This document shows, one piece after another, positions 18,313 through 27,285 of a stretch of DNA of 64,000 nucleotides. The notes under the pieces were generated by a model. The model made no database searches. It was not told the DNA's origin and saw nothing but the letters and a program-made list of their open reading frames with translations. The position numbers and the translations under genes are program-made. The stretch is from Verrucomicrobiota bacterium (lineage in GTDB: Bacteria; Verrucomicrobiota; Verrucomicrobiia; Palsa-1439). Each line of letters begins with the position of its first letter. Position 1 is the stretch's first letter. The stretch is taken from the NCBI GenBank assembly GCA_037127585.1, contig JBAXYB010000003.1, positions 3,248 to 67,247 of the forward strand, read 5' to 3'.

Positions 18313-18717
18313 CTATAGCACTTCAATTGGCTCTTGGTCAAATTGGCTGCGGTCATCCCGTAGCAGCCACGAGTTTGTTTCGACAGCTTTCCCTTTGCAT
18401 ACCGAGACGATCAGGTAGGCGAGATTTGGAAACGCGTTATCGAGGTCGAACTGCGATGGTCGCGCCGGCACGTCGGGATGCGAGTGGTAGATGCCGAGGA
18501 CTTGGATGGCCCGTTTGTCCGCGGCGCGTTCGATATCTCGGTAGGCGAGGGGATCGATGAGGTACCGGTTGTGGGCGCTGTCGTCGCGCTGGTTGTCGGC
18601 CCGGGCAATTTCGCTCACGACGTTGCCGTGACCGAGGAGGACGCCGCATGCTTCGTTTGGGTAACCGGCTTCGAGGTGTTGGTGGATTTGTGTCAGCAGT
18701 GCCTGTTTGATCTTCAT
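18313..18717 (-). CDS. mec: Mov34/MPN/JAMM metalloprotease (Mec+ / CysO-cysteine peptidase-like)
   Basis: JAMM motif EACGVLLG ... HSHPDVPARPSQFD. 134 aa. Confidence 0.8.
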   Translation of the reverse strand: MKIKQALLTQIHQHLEAGYPNEACGVLLGHGNVVSEIARADNQRDDSAHNRYLIDPLAYRDIERAADKRAIQVLGIYHSHPDVPARPSQFDLDNAFPNLAYLIVSVCKGKAVETNSWLLRDDRSQFDQEPIEVL

Positions 18718-19646
18718 CGCGCTTCCCAGAATTTGTCGCTTTGATACCGCGCCCCGCCGTCCGGCGCAACCGCGACGATGACGCCTTGTTGAATCCGCCC
18801 GGCCAACGTCACCGCCGCGCAGACAGCGGCTCCCGCACTGATGCCGACGAACAAGCCTTCCGCGCTCGTCAGTTGTCGGGCCATCGCTTGGGCGTCTTCA
18901 GTGCTGACGCCGATGGTTTCGTCGGCGAATTTCGAGCTGAATATTTCCGGCACGTGCGAGGCCGTCTCCATATGTTTGAGACCTTCGAGACCGTGGAACG
19001 GTCCTTCGGGTTGCATCGCGATGATGCGGATGGCCGGATTGTGTTCGCGGAGCCGGCGGCCAGTGCCCATCAACGTTCCGCTCGTGCCAAGGCCGGCAAT
19101 GAAATGCGTTACTTCGCCGGCGGTTTGCGTGATGATTTCTGCGCCGGTCGTCTCGTAATGGGCTTGGGGGTTCTCGAGGTTTCCGTACTGGTTTGGGTAG
19201 AAGTACTGGCCGGTACTGGTTTCGAGGAGCTTCTGCGTTTCATAATACGCGCCGTCGCTGCCTTGCGCTGGATCGGTGAGAACTAATTCGGCTCCGTATG
19301 AAGCGAGCAACTTTTTCCGTTCGATGCTCGCGTTTGCCGGCATGAGCAGTTTGCACCGATAACCTTTGCGGGCGGCAATCATCGCGTACGCGATGCCGGT
19401 GTTGCCGCTGGTAGCGTCGACAATGGTTTTGTCTTTTGTCAGCGCACCGGAGATTTCGCCTTGGCGAATCATCCGGTACGCGGGCCGGTCTTTCACGGAG
19501 CCGCCCGGGTTGAACCATTCGGCTTTCAGGAAAACGCGGACATGCGGAAAAGTCGCGATGCGGAGCAGGGGAATGAGCGGCGTGTTGCCGATCTGGCGTA
19601 GTAACGCGTCGGAATCATCAGCCGGCAATGGAGAGGCGCTATTCAA
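18714..19646 (-). CDS. cysM: cysteine synthase (CysM/CysK family, PLP-dependent)
   Basis: PLP-lysine motif KAEWFNPGGSVKDRPAYRMI, plus SGNTGIAYAMIAA. The ORF-track N-terminal extension is rejected because it runs through the tRNA. Probable TTG start at 19646. Confidence 0.75.
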   Translation of the reverse strand: MNSASPLPADDSDALLRQIGNTPLIPLLRIATFPHVRVFLKAEWFNPGGSVKDRPAYRMIRQGEISGALTKDKTIVDATSGNTGIAYAMIAARKGYRCKLLMPANASIERKKLLASYGAELVLTDPAQGSDGAYYETQKLLETSTGQYFYPNQYGNLENPQAHYETTGAEIITQTAGEVTHFIAGLGTSGTLMGTGRRLREHNPAIRIIAMQPEGPFHGLEGLKHMETASHVPEIFSSKFADETIGVSTEDAQAMARQLTSAEGLFVGISAGAAVCAAVTLAGRIQQGVIVAVAPDGGARYQSDKFWEAR

Positions 19647-19668
19647 AAGAGTTGTCTTGGGCTTGGAT

Positions 19669-19744
19669 TGGTGGAGATGAGGGGATTCGAACCCCTGGCC
19701 TCCTCGTTGCGAACGAGGCGCTCTACCAACTGAGCTACATCCCC
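19669..19744 (-). tRNA. tRNA-Ala (anticodon CGC), CCA encoded
   Basis: Cloverleaf by eye: 7-bp acceptor stem with G3:U70 (Ala identity), D-arm GCTCAGTTGGTAGAGC, anticodon stem CCTCG/CGAGG with loop TTCGCAA, T-arm GGTTCGAATCC, 3' CCA. Confidence 0.85.
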
Positions 19745-19826
19745 GACCCAAGCGCAGAATCTGCGACGCGCGGAATTTACTGTTTGAGTTGATTGCCGTC
19801 AACGTTTCACTTATGGTCACACCACT

Positions 19827-21278
19827 TTGAATCCCGAGACACAAAATCCAATTACTTTCTCCCTGGAAGAACTCAACGTCACGCCGGATTGGCTGAAAGC
19901 CCCGGTCAAGAGCTATGACCGCCATCCGGGTGATACCGGCAAGCGGTCGTTTGGCGACGGGCCACGCGAGCGGTCGGGCCCACCGCGGGGCGATCGGAAC
20001 GGGCCGCCCCGGCGTGACCGGCCGCCGGGCGGTCGTCGCGATGATCGATCTGGCGGTGGTCGGCCAATGGGTCGCCCAGCGGCACCTCGGGCGGAAGCGC
20101 CCCCGCAACCGTTACCCAATGTGGACGTACTTTTCGTTCCGAACGAGGCGGTACTGGTGGCGTTGATTGACACGGTCAAACAATCACGACGCGCCTTTGC
20201 ACTATTCGATCTCGCGAAACTTGTGCTCAATAAACCCGAGCGCCACAACGTTAAGTTCGTCCCCAAAGACGGCGAGTTGTACTGTGCGTTGTTGGCCGGC
20301 GGTGTGTTTTTGTCGCGCGAAGAGGCCATCCGCCACACGCTCCGGCAGGGAGTGGACAAAGTTTTCTCCCGCCAAGAAAAACCAATTGATCCGCCGAAAG
20401 GTAATTTCCAATTCGTCAATCGCTGCGGTCTGACCGGCGAATGGCTGGGACCACCGAACTATCACGAATACCAAGCGCGGCTCGTGCGTCATCACCAACA
20501 ACGGTTCGCGCACATGCCTTTCGACCGATTTAAGTCGAGCGTTGAGACGGTTCACGATCCAGAGGCCGTCAAAGCCTGGATCGAGTCCAAGAGCAAAGTG
20601 ACCGAATACACCTGCCTGCTCGACGCCGAGCCGAAGGTGTTTGCCGACCGGACGGAGTTGGAGAAACATATCCGGCAAGAACACCTCGACAAGATTGTCT
20701 CCGCCGTCAATGTCGTCGAACTGACTGGAGTGATGTCGCGCCAAGTCGAAGATCGCCGGTTGCTCGACCTCGTGCGCGACGCGTGGGAAAGCGAACACCG
20801 CTTCCCGATTCGGACCGTGAACGAACTCCGGCCCCAGCTCGTCAAAGCCGGTCTCCATTTCTTCAAACACAAAAAAGGCGTGACCTACATTACGCCCATT
20901 AAGCTGAACCGGTTTGATGCCATCACGCACCTGACTGAGCACGTGCAAAAGATCATCACGTATCTGCGCGCCCATGACGACGCGACGCGCAAAAAACTCG
21001 CCGAGCATCTCGCGCCGGTTGACGAGACCATGCTGGCGTCAGACCTCCACTGGCTCATTCAAGACGGGTACGTTGTTGAATTCCACAACGGCCGCCTCTG
21101 GGCTTTGGATGACCGGCCCGCGAAGCCAGTCACTCCGCCGCCCGCCGCTCAGACAGCCGAAATTGCTGCTGAGGCGCCGGCTCCGTCAAATCCGGCCGAC
21201 CCGGTGCCAAATTTGGCTGCACCAGCAACCGAAACAGTTCAAGCAGCGGCCCCGGTAATCGACAATCCGCCAAATTAG
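19827..21278 (+). CDS. hypothetical protein with Arg/Gly/Pro-rich N-terminal low-complexity region
   Basis: 483-aa ORF (TTG start per the track). RGG/RGD-like N-terminal tract (GPPRGDRNGPPRRDRPPGGRRDDRSGGGRP). Conserved-looking globular region and Pro/Ala-rich tail. No motif I recognise. Confidence 0.5.
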   Translation: MNPETQNPITFSLEELNVTPDWLKAPVKSYDRHPGDTGKRSFGDGPRERSGPPRGDRNGPPRRDRPPGGRRDDRSGGGRPMGRPAAPRAEAPPQPLPNVDVLFVPNEAVLVALIDTVKQSRRAFALFDLAKLVLNKPERHNVKFVPKDGELYCALLAGGVFLSREEAIRHTLRQGVDKVFSRQEKPIDPPKGNFQFVNRCGLTGEWLGPPNYHEYQARLVRHHQQRFAHMPFDRFKSSVETVHDPEAVKAWIESKSKVTEYTCLLDAEPKVFADRTELEKHIRQEHLDKIVSAVNVVELTGVMSRQVEDRRLLDLVRDAWESEHRFPIRTVNELRPQLVKAGLHFFKHKKGVTYITPIKLNRFDAITHLTEHVQKIITYLRAHDDATRKKLAEHLAPVDETMLASDLHWLIQDGYVVEFHNGRLWALDDRPAKPVTPPPAAQTAEIAAEAPAPSNPADPVPNLAAPATETVQAAAPVIDNPPN

Positions 21279-21888: not shown

Positions 21889-22176
21889 CTATTGAAGTTC
21901 TGCCTGAACGTCGCGTGCGCCGTGAAGCACTCGGATAATTTGGAGTTCATCCGCGGCAATTCGGTAGAAGATCACGTATGAATTCGCTGGGAAGCTGCGG
22001 AGTCCGCTCGCCAGCTCGTCGCGTTGCCGGCCAAGCTCTGGGTAATCGCACAGCAGACGGCTTTTCTGTTCGATCAGCTCAAGGATCGACAACGCGGCTT
22101 GGGGATCATCGTTCGCAATGCGGTCAGCCAGCTCAGCCAAGTCGATCTCAGCTTGGAGCGTAACTCGCAGGCGCAT
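21889..22176 (-). CDS. parE: type II toxin-antitoxin system RelE/ParE family toxin
   Basis: 95 aa, ParE-like sequence (SYVIFYRIAADELQIIRVLHGARD). Overlaps the stop of the upstream antitoxin gene. Confidence 0.75.
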   Translation of the reverse strand: MRLRVTLQAEIDLAELADRIANDDPQAALSILELIEQKSRLLCDYPELGRQRDELASGLRSFPANSYVIFYRIAADELQIIRVLHGARDVQAELQ

Positions 22177-22388
22177 CAGCGACCTTGCTTCAACCGCCGG
22201 AACACTGCGTCACCTTCGCCGAGGTCGCCCCGGTTCGCTTGGGCGATCCCGACGGCGATATCCGCGCGGAGCGTTTGCAGGCGGAGGCGCTGGACTTCAT
22301 GCGAGGCGGCGAGCCATTCGGAAAGCTCCAAGCGTTCGCGGGCGGATAGGTGTTCCGCCGCCAGCTTGATTTCCTGAATCGTGCTCAC
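22176..22388 (-). CDS. parD: type II antitoxin (ParD-like) cognate to ParE
   Basis: 70-aa ORF immediately upstream of the toxin and overlapping it. Helical, charged; typical TA architecture. Confidence 0.6.
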   Translation of the reverse strand: MSTIQEIKLAAEHLSARERLELSEWLAASHEVQRLRLQTLRADIAVGIAQANRGDLGEGDAVFRRLKQGR

Positions 22389-22449: not shown

Positions 22450-23988
22450 TCACAAGGTCGGCTTCTCAGCCTCAGCCCGGCGGCGTTGCTCGTCGAGATA
22501 CCGGTTAAGAGAGTTCAAGTAGGCGAGGGCGCTGGCTTCGATGATGTCGGTGCTGACTCCCTTGCCGGTGACGATGCGGCCATCAAAGTCGACGCGGACG
22601 CTGACTTCGCCGATGGCATCTTTCCCCCGCGAAACGCTCGACACGCTATAATCGTTCAACGCGCCCTTGATGCCGGTGATGCGATCCACGGTCTTGAGCA
22701 TCGCGTCGATCGGCCCGTCACCAGTGCCGGCATCGCTGATTGGTTCGTTTTTGTCGGCGCGAATCAAGCGGACGCTGGCCGTGGGAATCGTACCGGTCAT
22801 GACACTGAGGTAATCCAGTTTCCAGACCGGCGGGACTTCGGTGAATTGGCCTTCGACGATGGCGCGGACGTCTTCGTCGTAGACATGTTTCTTTTTGTCG
22901 GCGAGAGCCTTGATTGCGTCAGTGATGCGGCGGATTTCTTCGTCGCTGAGTTTGTAGCCCATCTCTTCGAGCTTCTTGCGAACGGCATGGTTGCCCATGT
23001 GTTTGCCCAACGTGAGTTCACTCGTGCGACCCACGTCTTCGGCGCACATGATCTCGTAATTCGCGCGGTTCTTGAGCATGCCGTGTTGGTGAATGCCGGA
23101 CTCGTGCGCGAACGCGTTGTCGCCGACGATGGCTTTGTTGCGTTGCACGACCATGCCGGTGAGATGGGACACGAGTCGGCTCGCGGGATAGATCTGGTGC
23201 GTGTCGATGCCGGTCGTCACGCCGCCGAAAATCTCGGGGCGCATCTTCAACGCCATCACGACTTCTTCGAGCGACGTGTTGCCGGCGCGTTCGCCGAGCC
23301 CGTTGAGGGTGCATTCGATCTGACGCGCTCCGGCTTGCACGGCGGCCAACGAGTTGGCGACGGCGAGGCCGAGGTCGTCATGGCAATGCACCGAGAAGAT
23401 CAAGCCCGGCACTTTCACGTTCGCGACAAGAAACGCGATCAACGCGCCGTATTCACCGGGAATTGCATAGCCGACGGTGTCTGGAATGTTCAACGTCGTC
23501 GCGCCGGCTTCAGCGCAGGCGGTGTAGAGTTCGACGAGGTAGTCGCGATCCGACCGGGTCGTGTCTTGTGCGGAGTATTCCACGTTGTCGGTGAATGTTC
23601 GCGCGAGTTTCACGGCGGCGACGGAGCGCTTGATGTTTTCGGCGCGGGACACGTTGAGCATGGTCTTCAAATGAATATCGCTGCCGGAGCTGAAGGTGTG
23701 AATACGGCGGCTCTTGGCCGGGGCGATTGCCTCGCCAGCGCGGACGATGTCTTTTTCCATCGTGCGGGCGAGTGCGCAGATGCACGGCCCCTGGATTTCG
23801 GTGGCGATGGCGTGGACGGCCTCGAAATCACCGTCGCTGGCGATGGGGAAGCCGGCTTCGATGATGTCTACTTTGAGGCGCGCGAGTTGGCGGGCGACCT
23901 CGAGTTTCTCGCGCGTGTTCATCGACGCGCCGGGGCATTGTTCGCCGTCGCGCAACGTCGTATCGAATATCAAGACTTGGTCACTCAT
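22450..23988 (-). CDS. leuA: 2-isopropylmalate synthase
   Basis: MSDQVLIFDTTLRDGEQCPGASM...HCHDDLGLAVANSLAAVQAGA, the canonical LeuA N-terminus and HxH motif. SD AAGGAAAAC before ATG 23988. Confidence 0.9.
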   Translation of the reverse strand: MSDQVLIFDTTLRDGEQCPGASMNTREKLEVARQLARLKVDIIEAGFPIASDGDFEAVHAIATEIQGPCICALARTMEKDIVRAGEAIAPAKSRRIHTFSSGSDIHLKTMLNVSRAENIKRSVAAVKLARTFTDNVEYSAQDTTRSDRDYLVELYTACAEAGATTLNIPDTVGYAIPGEYGALIAFLVANVKVPGLIFSVHCHDDLGLAVANSLAAVQAGARQIECTLNGLGERAGNTSLEEVVMALKMRPEIFGGVTTGIDTHQIYPASRLVSHLTGMVVQRNKAIVGDNAFAHESGIHQHGMLKNRANYEIMCAEDVGRTSELTLGKHMGNHAVRKKLEEMGYKLSDEEIRRITDAIKALADKKKHVYDEDVRAIVEGQFTEVPPVWKLDYLSVMTGTIPTASVRLIRADKNEPISDAGTGDGPIDAMLKTVDRITGIKGALNDYSVSSVSRGKDAIGEVSVRVDFDGRIVTGKGVSTDIIEASALAYLNSLNRYLDEQRRRAEAEKPTL

Positions 23989-23994
23989 GTTTTC

Positions 23995-24150
23995 CTTTTT
24001 GCCGGTGGGGACAGTGGAAAATGCAAAACCCACTGTCCGAACCGGACAGTGGGTTGTTTACCGTTTCTCAGCGCAAAGCTCAACCCGCTGTCCGACCCGT
24101 CAGGGCCAGACCTAGCAACGCCAGAAGCAAGTTGAGATTACAATTCATTA
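23995..24150 (-). promoter_or_regulatory. transcription attenuator (leader peptide + antiterminator/terminator alternative hairpins) controlling leuA
   Basis: mRNA segments A GGACAGCGGGUUG (contains the leader stop), B CAACCCACUGUCCG, C CGGACAGUGGG, then UUUUGCAUUUU, then D CCACUGUCC. B:C is a perfect 11-bp hairpin followed by the U tract (terminator). A:B (13 bp, 1 mismatch) is the mutually exclusive antiterminator. Confidence 0.6.
24080..24148 (-). CDS. leu operon leader peptide (22 aa, MNCNLNLLLALLGLALTGRTAG)
   Basis: 8 of 22 codons are Leu (mixed codons incl. CUA). The stop codon lies inside the first stem of an alternative-hairpin attenuator directly upstream of leuA. Confidence 0.6.
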   Translation of the reverse strand: MNCNLNLLLALLGLALTGRTAG

Positions 24151-24211
24151 CGGGCGAATATGTAGCAGTCAGACACGTTCGCGTCAAGTCGGGGCGAATT
24201 GCAATTCGCTC

Positions 24212-25615
24212 CTACGGTCCAATCACGATGCCGGGAGTGGTGGGCTGCTTGGGGGAAAACTCACCGCCAAGGCTTTCGATGAGGTAATGCCGCGTGTCGA
24301 TGGAGAACTCCGCCATGTAGGGCGTGCCCTTGAGTTGGCTCAGCAGGCCGGCCATGACTTTGCGGAGTTGATAGGACGGCATATCGATCAACTTCTTTAT
24401 CATCTGGTCGGCGAGCGTCACGTCGCCGATAAACTTCAGATACCGGACGCCTTCGGCGCGCGTGTCGTCCATGTCGTACATCGGTTCGGTGGCGGGAGGC
24501 GACGGCGGGACGACTTTCTCGGTGATGATCTGCATTACGCGTTTGGTCGAATCGCGGTCACCGAGGAGGCGCAGCGATTCGATGGCGCGTTGGCGGGTGG
24601 TCGGGCCGTGGGCTTTCATTTCGAAGAGCACTTTTTGGAGCGGGGCGATGGCTTGCTTATCGCCAAGCTTGCCGAGGGCTTCGGCGGCGTTCGACTGCGT
24701 CTCTTCGTTGCTGGTGCCAAGTAACCCGATCAATACCGGCACGGCAGCAGTCGCGGGCAGTTCGCCGAGCGCCCACGCGACGCGGGCTTGGGCGAACGGC
24801 GGACATTTTGAGACAGCATCCAGCATTGGTTGCCGGGAATCGGGATTACCGAGTTTGCCGACGGCGTCTGCCGTCGCCCGCGCCACCAGCGGATTGACAT
24901 CGAGGAGCAGGGGATGGAGTGCGATGGCCACTGCCGGTTGCTTCCAGCCGCCAAGTGCGCGGGCGGACTCAGTGCGAACCGGCGCGCTCGGATGTTTCAA
25001 CAATTCCACGAGCGCATCGCGGGCCGTGTCGCTATGAATCGACAGCAACGCGTCAGCGGCCGCCCGGCGCACGAATGGATCGTCGTCACGACCGAGCTGG
25101 CGGGCCAGTGCCACGCTCATTTCGACGCGGAGCGCGCCGAGCGCTTCGCAGACGTGCCGGCGCAGAACGGAGTCAGTGCTATCGAGCAGTGGAATGAGAT
25201 CGTCCGCCAGCCCGGTAAGTTTCAGCTTCGCAGCGGCATCAGCGGCGAGTTGCTGTTTAAGCGGACTCTTGTTTGTCAGATCGTACCGGATTTGGTCAGG
25301 GTTGGTCGGTTCTTCGATGGCCTTTGCTGTAATGGCCGATGGTTTATTGAGCGCTTGCTCGCGGACGGTGGCGACCGGGTCATTGGCCAGTTTGCGAATC
25401 AGTTCGACGTCGGCGGGATCACAGATCGTTTGCAGGGCGACAAGGCCTTGAATGCGGATGAGCGGGTCTTTCTCGCGCAGGCTGGCGCGGAGCATGTCGT
25501 GAGTCGCCGCGTCTTTCACCGGCATGAGAATCACCCCGGTCTCCAAGTTCGTCTCGATGACTTGGGCGAATGTCGCATTGGCCAGCGACAATAAGATAAT
25601 AATGACGTGTTTCAT
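24212..25615 (-). CDS. secreted HEAT-repeat protein
   Basis: Signal peptide MKHVIIILLSLANATFAQ followed by HEAT/PBS-lyase-type repeats. Start overlaps the stop of the ABC permease gene. Confidence 0.7.
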   Translation of the reverse strand: MKHVIIILLSLANATFAQVIETNLETGVILMPVKDAATHDMLRASLREKDPLIRIQGLVALQTICDPADVELIRKLANDPVATVREQALNKPSAITAKAIEEPTNPDQIRYDLTNKSPLKQQLAADAAAKLKLTGLADDLIPLLDSTDSVLRRHVCEALGALRVEMSVALARQLGRDDDPFVRRAAADALLSIHSDTARDALVELLKHPSAPVRTESARALGGWKQPAVAIALHPLLLDVNPLVARATADAVGKLGNPDSRQPMLDAVSKCPPFAQARVAWALGELPATAAVPVLIGLLGTSNEETQSNAAEALGKLGDKQAIAPLQKVLFEMKAHGPTTRQRAIESLRLLGDRDSTKRVMQIITEKVVPPSPPATEPMYDMDDTRAEGVRYLKFIGDVTLADQMIKKLIDMPSYQLRKVMAGLLSQLKGTPYMAEFSIDTRHYLIESLGGEFSPKQPTTPGIVIGP

Positions 25616-27285
25616 TTTTCGGGCGAAAGCATTTTCCAAATACGCTGGCAGGCGATAATGAAAAAGATGGCGCTCAGAGCTAAGACAAACGTGACATGCG
25701 AATGCCACAACTCGCGCGACTCACTGAAGTATTCGGTCGTCAACGCCTGGATTGCGCCGACAAACGGATTCAGCGCTAAAATCGCATCGCGGATGTTGCC
25801 GGCCAAATGCTCGCCGAGCAAAAGCGGAAAGAACGTCGCGACCGAGAGCACGGCAAGAATGCCGTAGGCGATTCCGGTCGCGGAGGCGGTCTTCTTCGCG
25901 ACCGCCGAACTGAATAGCCCGGTCATCAATGCCAGCAGAATCGTCGCGCCGATGATTTTCCAAGCGATGAAGATCTGTTGGAGCGTGTTGGTCTTCAGGT
26001 AGTAGATTGAGAACCACAACGGGATCGCGCCGACAACCACGAACAACACAAACACGGCCGCCGTGAATAGTTTGCCCCAGAGGAACTGCCAAGCGCTGAT
26101 CCGCGTCTGCCGGAGTAAGTCGAGGTTGCCGCGTTCGCGTTCCTGCGTAATCGCGCCGACGGTCAACGACGGCACGACGAGCACGATCAAGCCGAGTTGA
26201 AAGACCAGCGCCACCGTCCGGATTAAGTCGGGACTGCCGAGCGCGATGTTGCCGGCGACGAGTGACATCAAAATCATCGAGCCGGCCAGGCACAAATACG
26301 CGCAACGAAAAATCCAGATGCCGCCACCGAACGCTTGCGCGCGCATTTCGCGGGCGAAGACCGGGTTGATCCAATCGGGAATGTGCCCGCGCCGACGGAT
26401 CGGGTCGATCAGGTAGAATGGAAAGCTGAGTTTGCGTTGTGCCAGCAGCTTTGGGTCGTCGATGACCGGTGAGTGAGCCCGCGACGGTTGCCGGGCCGAG
26501 CGATACACGCTGGTGAGCAAATAAACGAGCAAACCAAACGACACCGTCCCGGCAAAGCCCGCAAAGATTATCCACGACGCCGGCAAGCCGGTCTTGCCGC
26601 CGCCAGGCGCGAGGTCAAACGCCGGCACGACCACCGATGCGATGGCTGCCAACGGGCTGCAAGACCGCACCAACACCGTCCAGTACGCCGCTTCGGGGCG
26701 CGTCTGCAGGATGACGTAAGGAATCCACGGCAACGCGTTGAGCCCGAGAATCAGCAGGTACGTCGTCACGAGCGCCGAGTGCGACGTGGGCCGCGCGGCG
26801 CTGATTGCCAACCCAAGCAACGCGAGAAACAGCGCTGTCAGCGCGGTCAGTCCGAAGATGATGATGGTTTCCGGCACCGACACCGCGCCGAGGAAGAAGC
26901 ACGCCGTAAAAATTGGAAACGACAGCACGACGAATAGCAGCAGACACGTCACCGATGAGAATAGCTTGCCGGTGATGATGTCCGCCGGACTCAATTGGGT
27001 CGTGAACAACAGCTCGTACGAGTTCTGTTCTTTCTCGACGGTAATGGCCGTCGCGCCAAAAGCCGGCGCGTACAACATCACCAGCAACAGTTGCCCGATG
27101 GTGAACACGAGCAACACCGACCGGGTCGATTGCGCCGCCAAAGAGTAAATGCCCTCGGTCGGCCAGAGAAACCAGACCACCGCCGCCAGCCCGGCAAGAT
27201 ACAGCGCCGTCAGCAGAAACGTCAGCCGACTGCGCAGCGCGCTCGTCAGTTCGCGGTGGAGGATGGGGTTATCGAGCATCGTCAA
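25612..27285 (-). CDS. ABC-2 type transporter permease (large, ~12 TM)
   Basis: 557-aa polytopic membrane protein with duplicated 6-TM ABC-2 organisation. Coupled to the upstream ATPase gene. Confidence 0.7.
   Translation of the reverse strand: MTMLDNPILHRELTSALRSRLTFLLTALYLAGLAAVVWFLWPTEGIYSLAAQSTRSVLLVFTIGQLLLVMLYAPAFGATAITVEKEQNSYELLFTTQLSPADIITGKLFSSVTCLLLFVVLSFPIFTACFFLGAVSVPETIIIFGLTALTALFLALLGLAISAARPTSHSALVTTYLLILGLNALPWIPYVILQTRPEAAYWTVLVRSCSPLAAIASVVVPAFDLAPGGGKTGLPASWIIFAGFAGTVSFGLLVYLLTSVYRSARQPSRAHSPVIDDPKLLAQRKLSFPFYLIDPIRRRGHIPDWINPVFAREMRAQAFGGGIWIFRCAYLCLAGSMILMSLVAGNIALGSPDLIRTVALVFQLGLIVLVVPSLTVGAITQERERGNLDLLRQTRISAWQFLWGKLFTAAVFVLFVVVGAIPLWFSIYYLKTNTLQQIFIAWKIIGATILLALMTGLFSSAVAKKTASATGIAYGILAVLSVATFFPLLLGEHLAGNIRDAILALNPFVGAIQALTTEYFSESRELWHSHVTFVLALSAIFFIIACQRIWKMLSPEK

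Follow-up and report, generated by a model that had tools for sequence, protein, structure and literature searches.

The locus considered here lies in a 64,000-nucleotide (nt) stretch of contig JBAXYB010000003.1 from a Verrucomicrobiota bacterium (assembly GCA_037127585.1). We call this whole stretch the window, and its numbering is used throughout unless another locus is named. The locus comprises leuA and the short leader region in front of it, both on the minus strand. The leuA gene (22450..23988, ATG at 23988) encodes a 512-aa 2-isopropylmalate synthase with the Pfam domains HMGL-like, HCS_D2 and LeuA_dimer, which scores above the cutoffs of the NCBIfam equivalogs NF002086 (726.8 bits) and TIGR00973 (660.4 bits) and shows 100% identity to an NCBI entry of a Verrucomicrobiota metagenome-assembled genome (MAG). 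Upstream of it is a 22-codon open reading frame (ORF) at 24080..24148 (ATG at 24148, TGA at 24082..24080) that would encode the peptide MNCNLNLLLALLGLALTGRTAG. Its eight Leu codons, at positions 5, 7, 8, 9, 11, 12, 14 and 16, are dispersed over codons 5-16 and draw on five different Leu codons. The original prediction, made from the letters of the window, had recognized this Leu-rich ORF, which we confirm at 24148..24080 on the minus strand, and had placed it 162 nt upstream of leuA, a distance that we measure, from ATG to ATG, as 160 nt. Among the 613 ATG-initiated ORFs of 10-40 codons in the window, three are Leu-rich (at least 5 Leu within 8 codons), and only the leader ORF has a terminator no more than 90 nt away. 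Taken together, the sequence comparisons and predicted folds described below make it likely that the leader controls leuA by ribosome-mediated attenuation of transcription in response to leucine.

The leader RNA is organized around five segments. Segment 1 (CUCAACUUGCU, 24126..24136) coincides with leader codons 5-8 (L-N-L-L) and is the putative anti-antiterminator arm; segment 2 (UCGGACAGCGGGUUGAG, 24079..24095) contains the UGA stop; segment 3 (CAACCCACUGUCCGG, 24042..24056) provides both the 5' arm of the terminator and the 3' arm of the antiterminator; segment 4 (CGGACAGUGGGUU, 24027..24039) is the 3' arm of the terminator. The U tract (UUUUGCAUUUU, 24018..24028), the first two U of which also close the terminator stem, is followed by segment 5 (CCACUGUCC, 24009..24017), which is complementary to segment 4. 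Segments 2 (in extended form), 3, 4 and 5 correspond to four mutually exclusive elements, A to D, of the original prediction; all four are present, the stop codon does lie inside A, in its 3' end, and D is complementary to C, but D is located beyond the termination point and hence outside the termination decision, and segment 1 had been missed.

As a whole, the 181-nt leader folds with a z-score of -4.83, and 0 of 200 dinucleotide shuffles fold as well. At the level of sequence, a GC-rich hairpin followed by a U tract, the signature of an intrinsic terminator, lies between the leader ORF and leuA. Specifically, a terminator scan places 24055..24043 against 24039..24027 in a perfect stem with a GUU loop (-22.6 kcal/mol), so that the proposed perfect hairpin and U tract hold, with a stem of 13 bp rather than 11 bp. 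The antiterminator likewise exists, although not as the perfect 13-bp helix proposed: 12 of the 13 A:B positions pair, with one C.A mismatch, and the folded 2:3 form has 14 pairs (UCGGACAG/C/GGGUUG with CAACCC/A/CUGUCCGG; -28.7 kcal/mol as a sub-fold). In the minimum-energy fold, segment 1 pairs instead with AGCGGGUUGAG, the 3' part of A including the stop codon (-33.8 kcal/mol); segment 2 has, in other words, two alternative partners, segment 1 or segment 3. On these predicted folds the leader is of the full classical layout, with a 1:2 anti-antiterminator, a 2:3 antiterminator and a 3:4 terminator, and it combines the features of the attenuator class: an ORF rich in codons for the end product, an antiterminator that is exclusive with the terminator, a 1:2 helix overlapping the regulatory codons, and a stop placed in segment 2.

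Further evidence for this interpretation is comparative. LeuA scans of genomes and metagenomes gave 160 loci, ten look-ups of closer LeuA proteins gave 12 more, and the 450 nt upstream of each leuA were scanned for leaders. As the original prediction would have it, the Leu-rich peptide and the stems recur before leuA in relatives: a clearly homologous leader was found in 14 further Verrucomicrobiota loci (L001, L002, L005, L081, L082, L161, L163, L165, L166, L168, L169, L170, L171 and L172), the LeuA proteins of which are 57-88% identical to that of the window. With the window leader these make up a family of 15 members; all source genomes are metagenome assemblies, none being from a cultured strain. 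The peptides of the homologous leaders include the types MNRNLNLLLALLALRLASETAG, MNQNLNLLGLLVLLLRRRTVG and MNTNLNLLPLLALLPQRPVG. A covariance model (R1) built from five homologous leaders recovers all 15 at E <= 1e-9, has a single match in the window, which is the leader, and has none in the non-Verrucomicrobia loci. The leader ORF is open in the same frame, from a conserved AUG or GUG to a stop in segment 2, in 15/15 members, and that stop stands in the context GGGUUGA or GGGUUAA in 13 of them, with GGGCUGA in L165 and GGGGUUUAG in L005. A U-rich tract follows the terminator stem in every member.

These patterns bear directly on an explanation in which the terminator/antiterminator switch is real and is flipped by a factor acting in trans (an RNA-binding protein, an uncharged tRNA or a small molecule), the Leu-rich ORF being a by-product of C/U/G-rich segments. 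Such a by-product is conceivable, given that pairing with the G-rich segment 2 demands a CU-rich segment 1, and this composition in itself favors CUN and UUG codons. The Leu codons, however, are specific to one frame, with 113 in the leader frame over the 15 members as against 16 and 18 in the alternative frames, both of which are closed by stops in all 15 members, whereas the leader frame stays open throughout. Five of the eight Leu codons of the window leader are situated outside segment 1, between segments 1 and 2, and two relatives with 15-18 nt insertions either retain the frame and the place of the stop or acquire a stop further 5', within a duplicate of segment 2. Nor is there a sign of a known trans-responsive element: over 23700..24500, neither the T-box (RF00230) nor the Rfam Leu_leader (RF00512) has a match at E up to 10, no other Rfam family gave an acceptable one, the T-box has none at the gathering score either, and at gathering scores no Rfam family matches the window or 10 relatives. 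The low-score Rfam matches that did appear were rejected as chance microRNA-type hairpins. We therefore regard control by a trans-acting factor as unlikely, though it is the rival that we take most seriously.

Covariation supports all three alternative helices of the proposed attenuator. Folding the sub-regions separately yields 1:2, 2:3 and 3:4 in each of the 15 sequences. The pairings were then counted on alignments made with covariance models (A4 from R1, A5 from R2), which replaced plain MAFFT alignments (A1 and A2) whose terminator arms were out of register in several members. On A4, helices 1:2 and 3:4 together have 95% of 398 cells paired and 13 of 27 pairs changed on both sides, a level reached by 0 of 500 shuffles, while slid partners pair in 33-50%. 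Taken singly, helix 1:2 is 93.3% paired, with 3 pairs changed on both sides, and helix 3:4 is 96.6% paired, with 10 of 14 changed on both sides. On A5, helix 2:3 is 86.5% paired (slid partners 34-53%) with 8 of 17 pairs changed on both sides, counts that lean towards the model because A5 was fitted to the tested 2:3 structure; conversely, its figure of 81% for the upper helix of the window is probably an underestimate, as A5 misplaces that helix. A swap test that needs no alignment points the same way: cognate segment 2/segment 3 duplexes average -26.1 kcal/mol versus -23.0 kcal/mol when permuted, with 0.065% of permutations as stable (p ~0.0007), a figure of the kind that kinship among the sequences inflates.

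The compensatory changes extend into the coding sequence. The inner terminator of the window is UGUCCG/CGGACA, and its segment 2 carries CGGACA; in the L161 type the inner terminator is CCGACGCG/CGUCGG, with CGCGUCGG in segment 2. The C-terminal half of the peptide (TGRTAG, ASETAG, RQAVG or RRTVG) changes in step with segments 3 and 4. As read from the sequences, the covariation is three-way, linking segments 2, 3 and 4 together with the peptide C-terminal half (TGRTAG in the window versus ASETAG in the L161 type). This pattern argues against a conserved protein product, since the C-terminal half changes along with the terminator and segment 2, and it thereby bears on the idea that the product of the ORF is a small hydrophobic peptide with a function, such as a membrane peptide or a toxin. 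The peptide is indeed hydrophobic, and its N-terminal motif MNxNLNLL is conserved. Yet the conserved N-terminal codons are those that pair with segment 2, the C-terminal half is free in its amino acids while retaining RNA complementarity to segment 3, the length ranges over 19-28 codons across the family, insertions included, and the ORF is always attached to leuA. A peptide with a function of its own is, on this evidence, very improbable.

The surroundings of the leaders are equally informative about the hairpin. In the window the upstream neighbor of the leader, on the same strand, is a HEAT-repeat gene (24212..25708), and the hairpin, lying ~160 nt downstream of the stop of that gene, might be read as its terminator, with the small ORF a chance frame. 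Across the family, the genes upstream of the leader vary: a HEAT protein, ilvC or a methyltransferase in some loci and, in others, divergently oriented genes for ribosomal L21, a Polbeta nucleotidyltransferase or an RbsD-like protein. Because upstream genes differ or diverge between loci while the leader and hairpin remain the same, the hairpin is not the terminator of the upstream gene; further, a conserved promoter intervenes between the HEAT gene and the leader, and the ORF and segments 1 and 2 covary with the hairpin. Of all the alternatives weighed here, we give this one the least credence, next to none.

Some members of the family differ from the window in their layout. In L161 (1-317) and L171 (1-483), ilvC, encoding ketol-acid reductoisomerase, is immediately upstream and shares its strand with the leader and leuA, so that the promoter and attenuator sit inside a branched-chain amino-acid gene cluster and would give leuA its own leucine-specific control. 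L163 (521-666) and L171 (515-666) carry the 15-18 nt insertions, which duplicate a segment-2-like sequence (GGUGGGU..., then GGCGGGUUGA/AA). The L171 leader ORF reads through the duplicated copy (28 codons) and stops in the second, the L163 ORF stops in the first, and in both loci either copy of segment 2 is able to pair with segment 3.

Upstream of the leader ORF, conservation points to a promoter of the sigma-70 type. In the window, a putative -35 box TTGACG (24182..24187) is followed, after a 17-nt spacer that ends in TGc, by an extended -10 element, TGcTACATA (24159..24167), with its TG at 24167..24166 and its hexamer at 24164..24159, all on the minus strand. TTGAC(N) is present in 15/15 members, 16-17 nt before a -10 hexamer that starts with TA in 15/15, and is nearly invariant in alignment A1; TG occurs at -15/-14 in 13/15. 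The -10 hexamer is very close to the start codon of the leader (10 nt in the window, 6-10 nt in the family), and between them no Shine-Dalgarno sequence or purine-rich stretch was found in the 15 members, whereas leuA itself has a good Shine-Dalgarno sequence, AGGA at 23993..23996 in the window and AGGA or a similar motif at a distance of 5-10 nt from the leuA ATG in every member. From this promoter geometry and the lack of a Shine-Dalgarno sequence, the leader is most likely translated from an mRNA that is leaderless or has a leader of 0-4 nt. There is a precedent in the ilvB leader of Corynebacterium diphtheriae, where transcription was mapped to begin at the very first nucleotide of the leader start codon, so that the leader ORF is leaderless (PMC5784534). 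The missing Shine-Dalgarno sequence would also suit a switch operated in trans.

The promoter also accounts for a longer reading of the ORF. Because the TTG of the -35 box can be in frame with the leader, mechanical ORF lists contain a 35-codon ORF starting at TTG 24187 (24080..24187), which we rejected, given that this TTG is the -35 box and is in frame only at a -35-to-ATG spacing of 39 nt. That spacing, with the TTG in frame, is found in the window, L001, L161, L170 and L172. The 29-aa gene that a gene caller placed at 516..605 of L169 is the leader ORF of that locus, read from a start further upstream.

These features suggest how the leader may work, and in what follows we infer where transcription starts, that the leader is translated, that leucine matters, that termination takes place in the cell, and whatever part segment 5 may have. 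Transcription would begin at the sigma-70-type promoter, the -10 element of which ends 10 nt before the leader AUG, and the 22-codon leader would be translated off the leaderless or nearly leaderless mRNA. When leucine is plentiful, the ribosome would reach the UGA inside segment 2 and cover that segment; with no ribosome present, segment 1 would pair with segment 2. Either way, segment 3 would be left free to pair with segment 4, and the resulting 13-bp hairpin and U tract would halt RNA polymerase before leuA. When charged tRNA-Leu is scarce, the ribosome would stall at Leu codons 5-14, in and just after segment 1, masking segment 1; segment 2 would then take segment 3 as it emerges, the terminator would come too late, and the polymerase would enter leuA. 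In the readthrough transcripts, segment 4, thereby freed, may pair with segment 5.

Folding with a masked ribosome behaves as this model predicts when the transcript is considered at the moment of decision. In this snapshot the transcript was truncated where the terminator loop ends, so that it still lacked segment 4, the ribosome footprint was masked, and the readout was the probability of pairing between segments 2 and 3. That probability is 0.00 in the window without a ribosome, when 1:2 forms (family mean 0.35), and 0.00 with the footprint centered on the stop codon (family mean 0.14); with the footprint on Leu codons 5-14 it rises to 0.87-0.92 (family mean 0.86 for the best Leu codon), and on Leu codon 16, where segment 2 is already covered, it is again 0.00. 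The proposal of ribosome-mediated attenuation thus draws support from the 14 further loci, the compensatory changes and the masked-ribosome snapshot. The narrower claim, that the antiterminator forms only if the ribosome stalls in the Leu run, stands for the window in the snapshot before segment 4, but not at equilibrium with the full terminator, and not in four relatives.

Several points, including these last two, weigh against the attenuator interpretation. First, once the full terminator is present, equilibrium folding shows no switch: the terminator has a probability of 0.89-0.95 in the window in every masked state, and it wins in most relatives too. Because the terminator wins at equilibrium, the switch must be kinetic, depending on the order of synthesis, as in classical models, and we take the equilibrium result to be a limit of the evidence for the switch rather than a contradiction of it. 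Second, in L081, L082, L170 and L002 the truncated transcript favors 2:3 even without a ribosome. Third, translation of the leader would rest on leaderless or short-leader initiation, which is undemonstrated for this phylum. Fourth, the case is built from the sequence, covariation and predicted folds of MAGs, and a look-alike elsewhere calls for caution: in Streptomyces coelicolor, mutating the Leu codons of an attenuator-like leader of leuA gave results at odds with classical attenuation, for which reason the actinobacterial leuA LEU element was proposed to bind a protein (as summarized in PMC1262725). This would suit a switch flipped in trans. Since the S. coelicolor leader behaved non-classically, architecture alone is no proof. 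The LEU element lacks an obvious terminator and uses its Leu run to pair with the Shine-Dalgarno sequence of leuA in a pseudoknot (PMC1262725), whereas the window leader has a canonical terminator, its Leu run pairs with segment 2, and the Shine-Dalgarno sequence is 130 nt away from the Leu run.

Segment 5 adds a component that lies past the termination point. In the window its duplex with segment 4 has 10 bp, including one G.U (-18.3 kcal/mol; z = -4.7 versus shuffles). A counterpart just past the U tract is present in 13/15 members, beginning 6-9 nt after the stem in 11 of them, and the two partners change together: CCACUGUCC pairs with GGACAGUGG of segment 4 in the window, CCCAUCUCGACG with CGUCGGGGUGGG in L163, and CCCACGCCGGC with GUCGGCGUGGG in L165. 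Because the pairing register differs among subgroups, 4:5 was assessed by duplex energies and swapping rather than by a covariance model; in the subset of 11, cognate duplexes average -17.3 kcal/mol versus -14.3 kcal/mol when swapped, with a permutation fraction of 0.0003. In forced antiterminated folds, segment 5 pairs with segment 4 and the U tract forms the loop. Candidate roles for segment 5 are to lock the readthrough fold or to stabilize the mRNA. A third, in which segment 5 or the U tract gates access to the leuA Shine-Dalgarno sequence, was dropped, as the unpaired probability of that sequence in forced terminator versus antiterminator states differs in both directions over the 15 leaders.

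An element that can act only on full-length mRNA, yet is conserved and covaries with segment 4, is what might be expected if leuA were controlled mainly through its translation or mRNA stability, with folds that include 4:5 setting Shine-Dalgarno access or RNase sensitivity, or with the leader ORF promoting re-initiation. In line with this, the minimum-energy fold of the window leader pairs the terminal UUUUCC of the U tract with GGAAAA of the leuA ribosome-binding site. Against such control, the hairpin is a strong canonical intrinsic terminator with a U tract in 15/15 members, the computed Shine-Dalgarno accessibility shows no consistent difference between terminator and antiterminator states over the family, and 91 nt separate the stop of the leader from the start of leuA, a distance too long for simple re-initiation. 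We judge translation or stability as the main level of control to be slightly less likely still than a trans-acting factor. A different matter is whether segment 5 supplements attenuation. In this elaboration, which we offer tentatively and would not favor as it stands, the leader would be a five-segment, promoter-coupled attenuator, in which the leaderless ORF ties ribosome loading to transcription initiation and the 4:5 hairpin in readthrough transcripts adds a layer after the decision. If it is true, the 4:5 layer, whether by locking the 'on' fold or by setting the stability or translation of leuA mRNA, would be a feature that textbook attenuators lack.

Compared with known systems, the proposed attenuator is familiar in logic and separate in sequence. 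Like leuL of Escherichia coli and Salmonella, and trpL-type leaders generally, it has an ORF rich in end-product codons, segments that pair as 1:2, 2:3 and 3:4, codons that overlap the anti-antiterminator, and a stop that blocks segment 2 (for the principle, see PMC5314783). It differs from leuL in having no detectable sequence or structure homology to it, in preceding a lone leuA rather than leuABCD, in its eight dispersed Leu codons in place of four consecutive ones, in an ORF that lacks a Shine-Dalgarno sequence and starts 6-10 nt past the -10 box across the family, and in the extra segment 5 after the U tract. The Leu codons overlap the anti-antiterminator in E. coli leuL and in the LeuA leaders of Streptococcus alike (PMC5314783). 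The latter, identified by Term-seq and PASIFIC, resemble the window leader as lineage-specific Leu-rich upstream ORFs next to leuA, with a terminator and an antiterminator and without likeness to leuL in sequence; they belong to another phylum, have another sequence and are backed by Term-seq (PMC5314783), whereas the window leader is known from its sequence. The Streptococcus leaders show that the Leu-leader design arises independently before leuA. Corynebacterium and Mycobacterium also have Leu-rich leader peptides upstream of leuA (leu leader MNRANLLLLRRGGSQA), and a leaderless ORF, here suggested by geometry, has been mapped there for ilvB (PMC5784534).

Our scans brought to light further leaders that seem to follow the same design. 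Other Verrucomicrobia MAGs have Leu-rich leaders before leuA (L008 MKSALNLLALLLLLNEG, L010 MIIRFSLLSLRTLLLSEA and L011 MIRSGLLRRLLLLLLLEG), with a terminator and with an antiterminator that begins at or just past the stop; a promoter with TTGACA and a TA-hexamer ends 6-7 nt before the ATG, the geometry of the family. Leaders are likewise present before leuA in the Schlesneria (Planctomycetes) MAGs L014 (2281-2401) and L015 (MKYESLLLLGLLLTR and MKHESLLLLGLLLTR), again with terminators and antiterminators. Judged by their sequences, the L008, L010, L011 and Schlesneria leaders look unrelated to the window family and would represent independent recurrences of the design. In about 30 alphaproteobacterial loci, mostly of Rhizobiales type (including L051, L052, L059, L060, L064, L068-L076, L080 and L148-L160), leuA is preceded by a conserved leader ORF of its own, ending in ...LILGGLLLLSAP or ...LLLLIRP. 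The logic is as in the window leader, with a short ORF that has a Leu run close to its end, but peptide and RNA sequences are unrelated to it and the ORFs are longer. Leaders of this alphaproteobacterial kind were reportedly predicted earlier by Vitreschak et al. in 2004. That unrelated leaders before leuA in other phyla are likewise Leu-rich is a further argument that the Leu codons are not a by-product of a switch flipped in trans. In contrast, the 450 nt before leuA contain no Leu-rich leader or terminator in L003, L004, L009, L013, L022, L024, L029, L033, L034 and L042, which belong to Victivallales, Kiritimatiellia, Akkermansia and several Planctomycetia, so that the element is patchy within the Planctomycetes-Verrucomicrobia-Chlamydiae (PVC) group.

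Two further features of the window concern its other genes. Directly 3' of leuA is a gene for a 95-aa ParE-family toxin (21889..22176, minus strand, Pfam PF05016), preceded by a 70-aa ORF (22176..22388, minus strand) that no NCBIfam model matched; the stop and start of the two overlap in TGATG, as in a ParD/ParE-type toxin-antitoxin pair, and the window shows no evident terminator separating leuA from the pair. The sole tRNA gene of the window, tRNA-Ala (CGC) at 19669-19744 on the minus strand, is inside a called 464-aa ORF (18714..20108), the PALP domain of which covers residues 171-450 only, so the true start of that gene must be downstream of the tRNA.

Documented leader-peptide attenuation, which is among the best-understood bacterial controls, is concentrated in Proteobacteria, Firmicutes and Actinobacteria, and to our knowledge hardly any work has addressed how PVC bacteria regulate their genes. 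The view in the original prediction that such attenuation is undocumented for PVC lineages is consistent with what we found, namely no Rfam family and, in a literature search that was not exhaustive and leaves room for an earlier prediction, no paper on leader-peptide attenuation in Verrucomicrobia or Planctomycetes. The window leader is a well-conserved case of a regulator type that is very well known in general and apparently undescribed in this phylum, and it departs modestly from that type in two respects: its leader ORF is probably leaderless, and segment 5 follows the terminator. To a specialist, the mechanism itself would be unsurprising, and segment 5 poses a small question. What the 15 homologous leaders, with all three alternative helices covarying, do provide is a well-supported comparative case for an attenuator in Verrucomicrobiota, and they define an RNA family suitable for inclusion in Rfam and in annotation pipelines, where it is missed at present. 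Beyond leuA, they point to a conserved promoter type in these bacteria (TTGACN, 16-17 nt, TGnTAnnnn) and suggest that these bacteria may be able to translate leaderless mRNAs.

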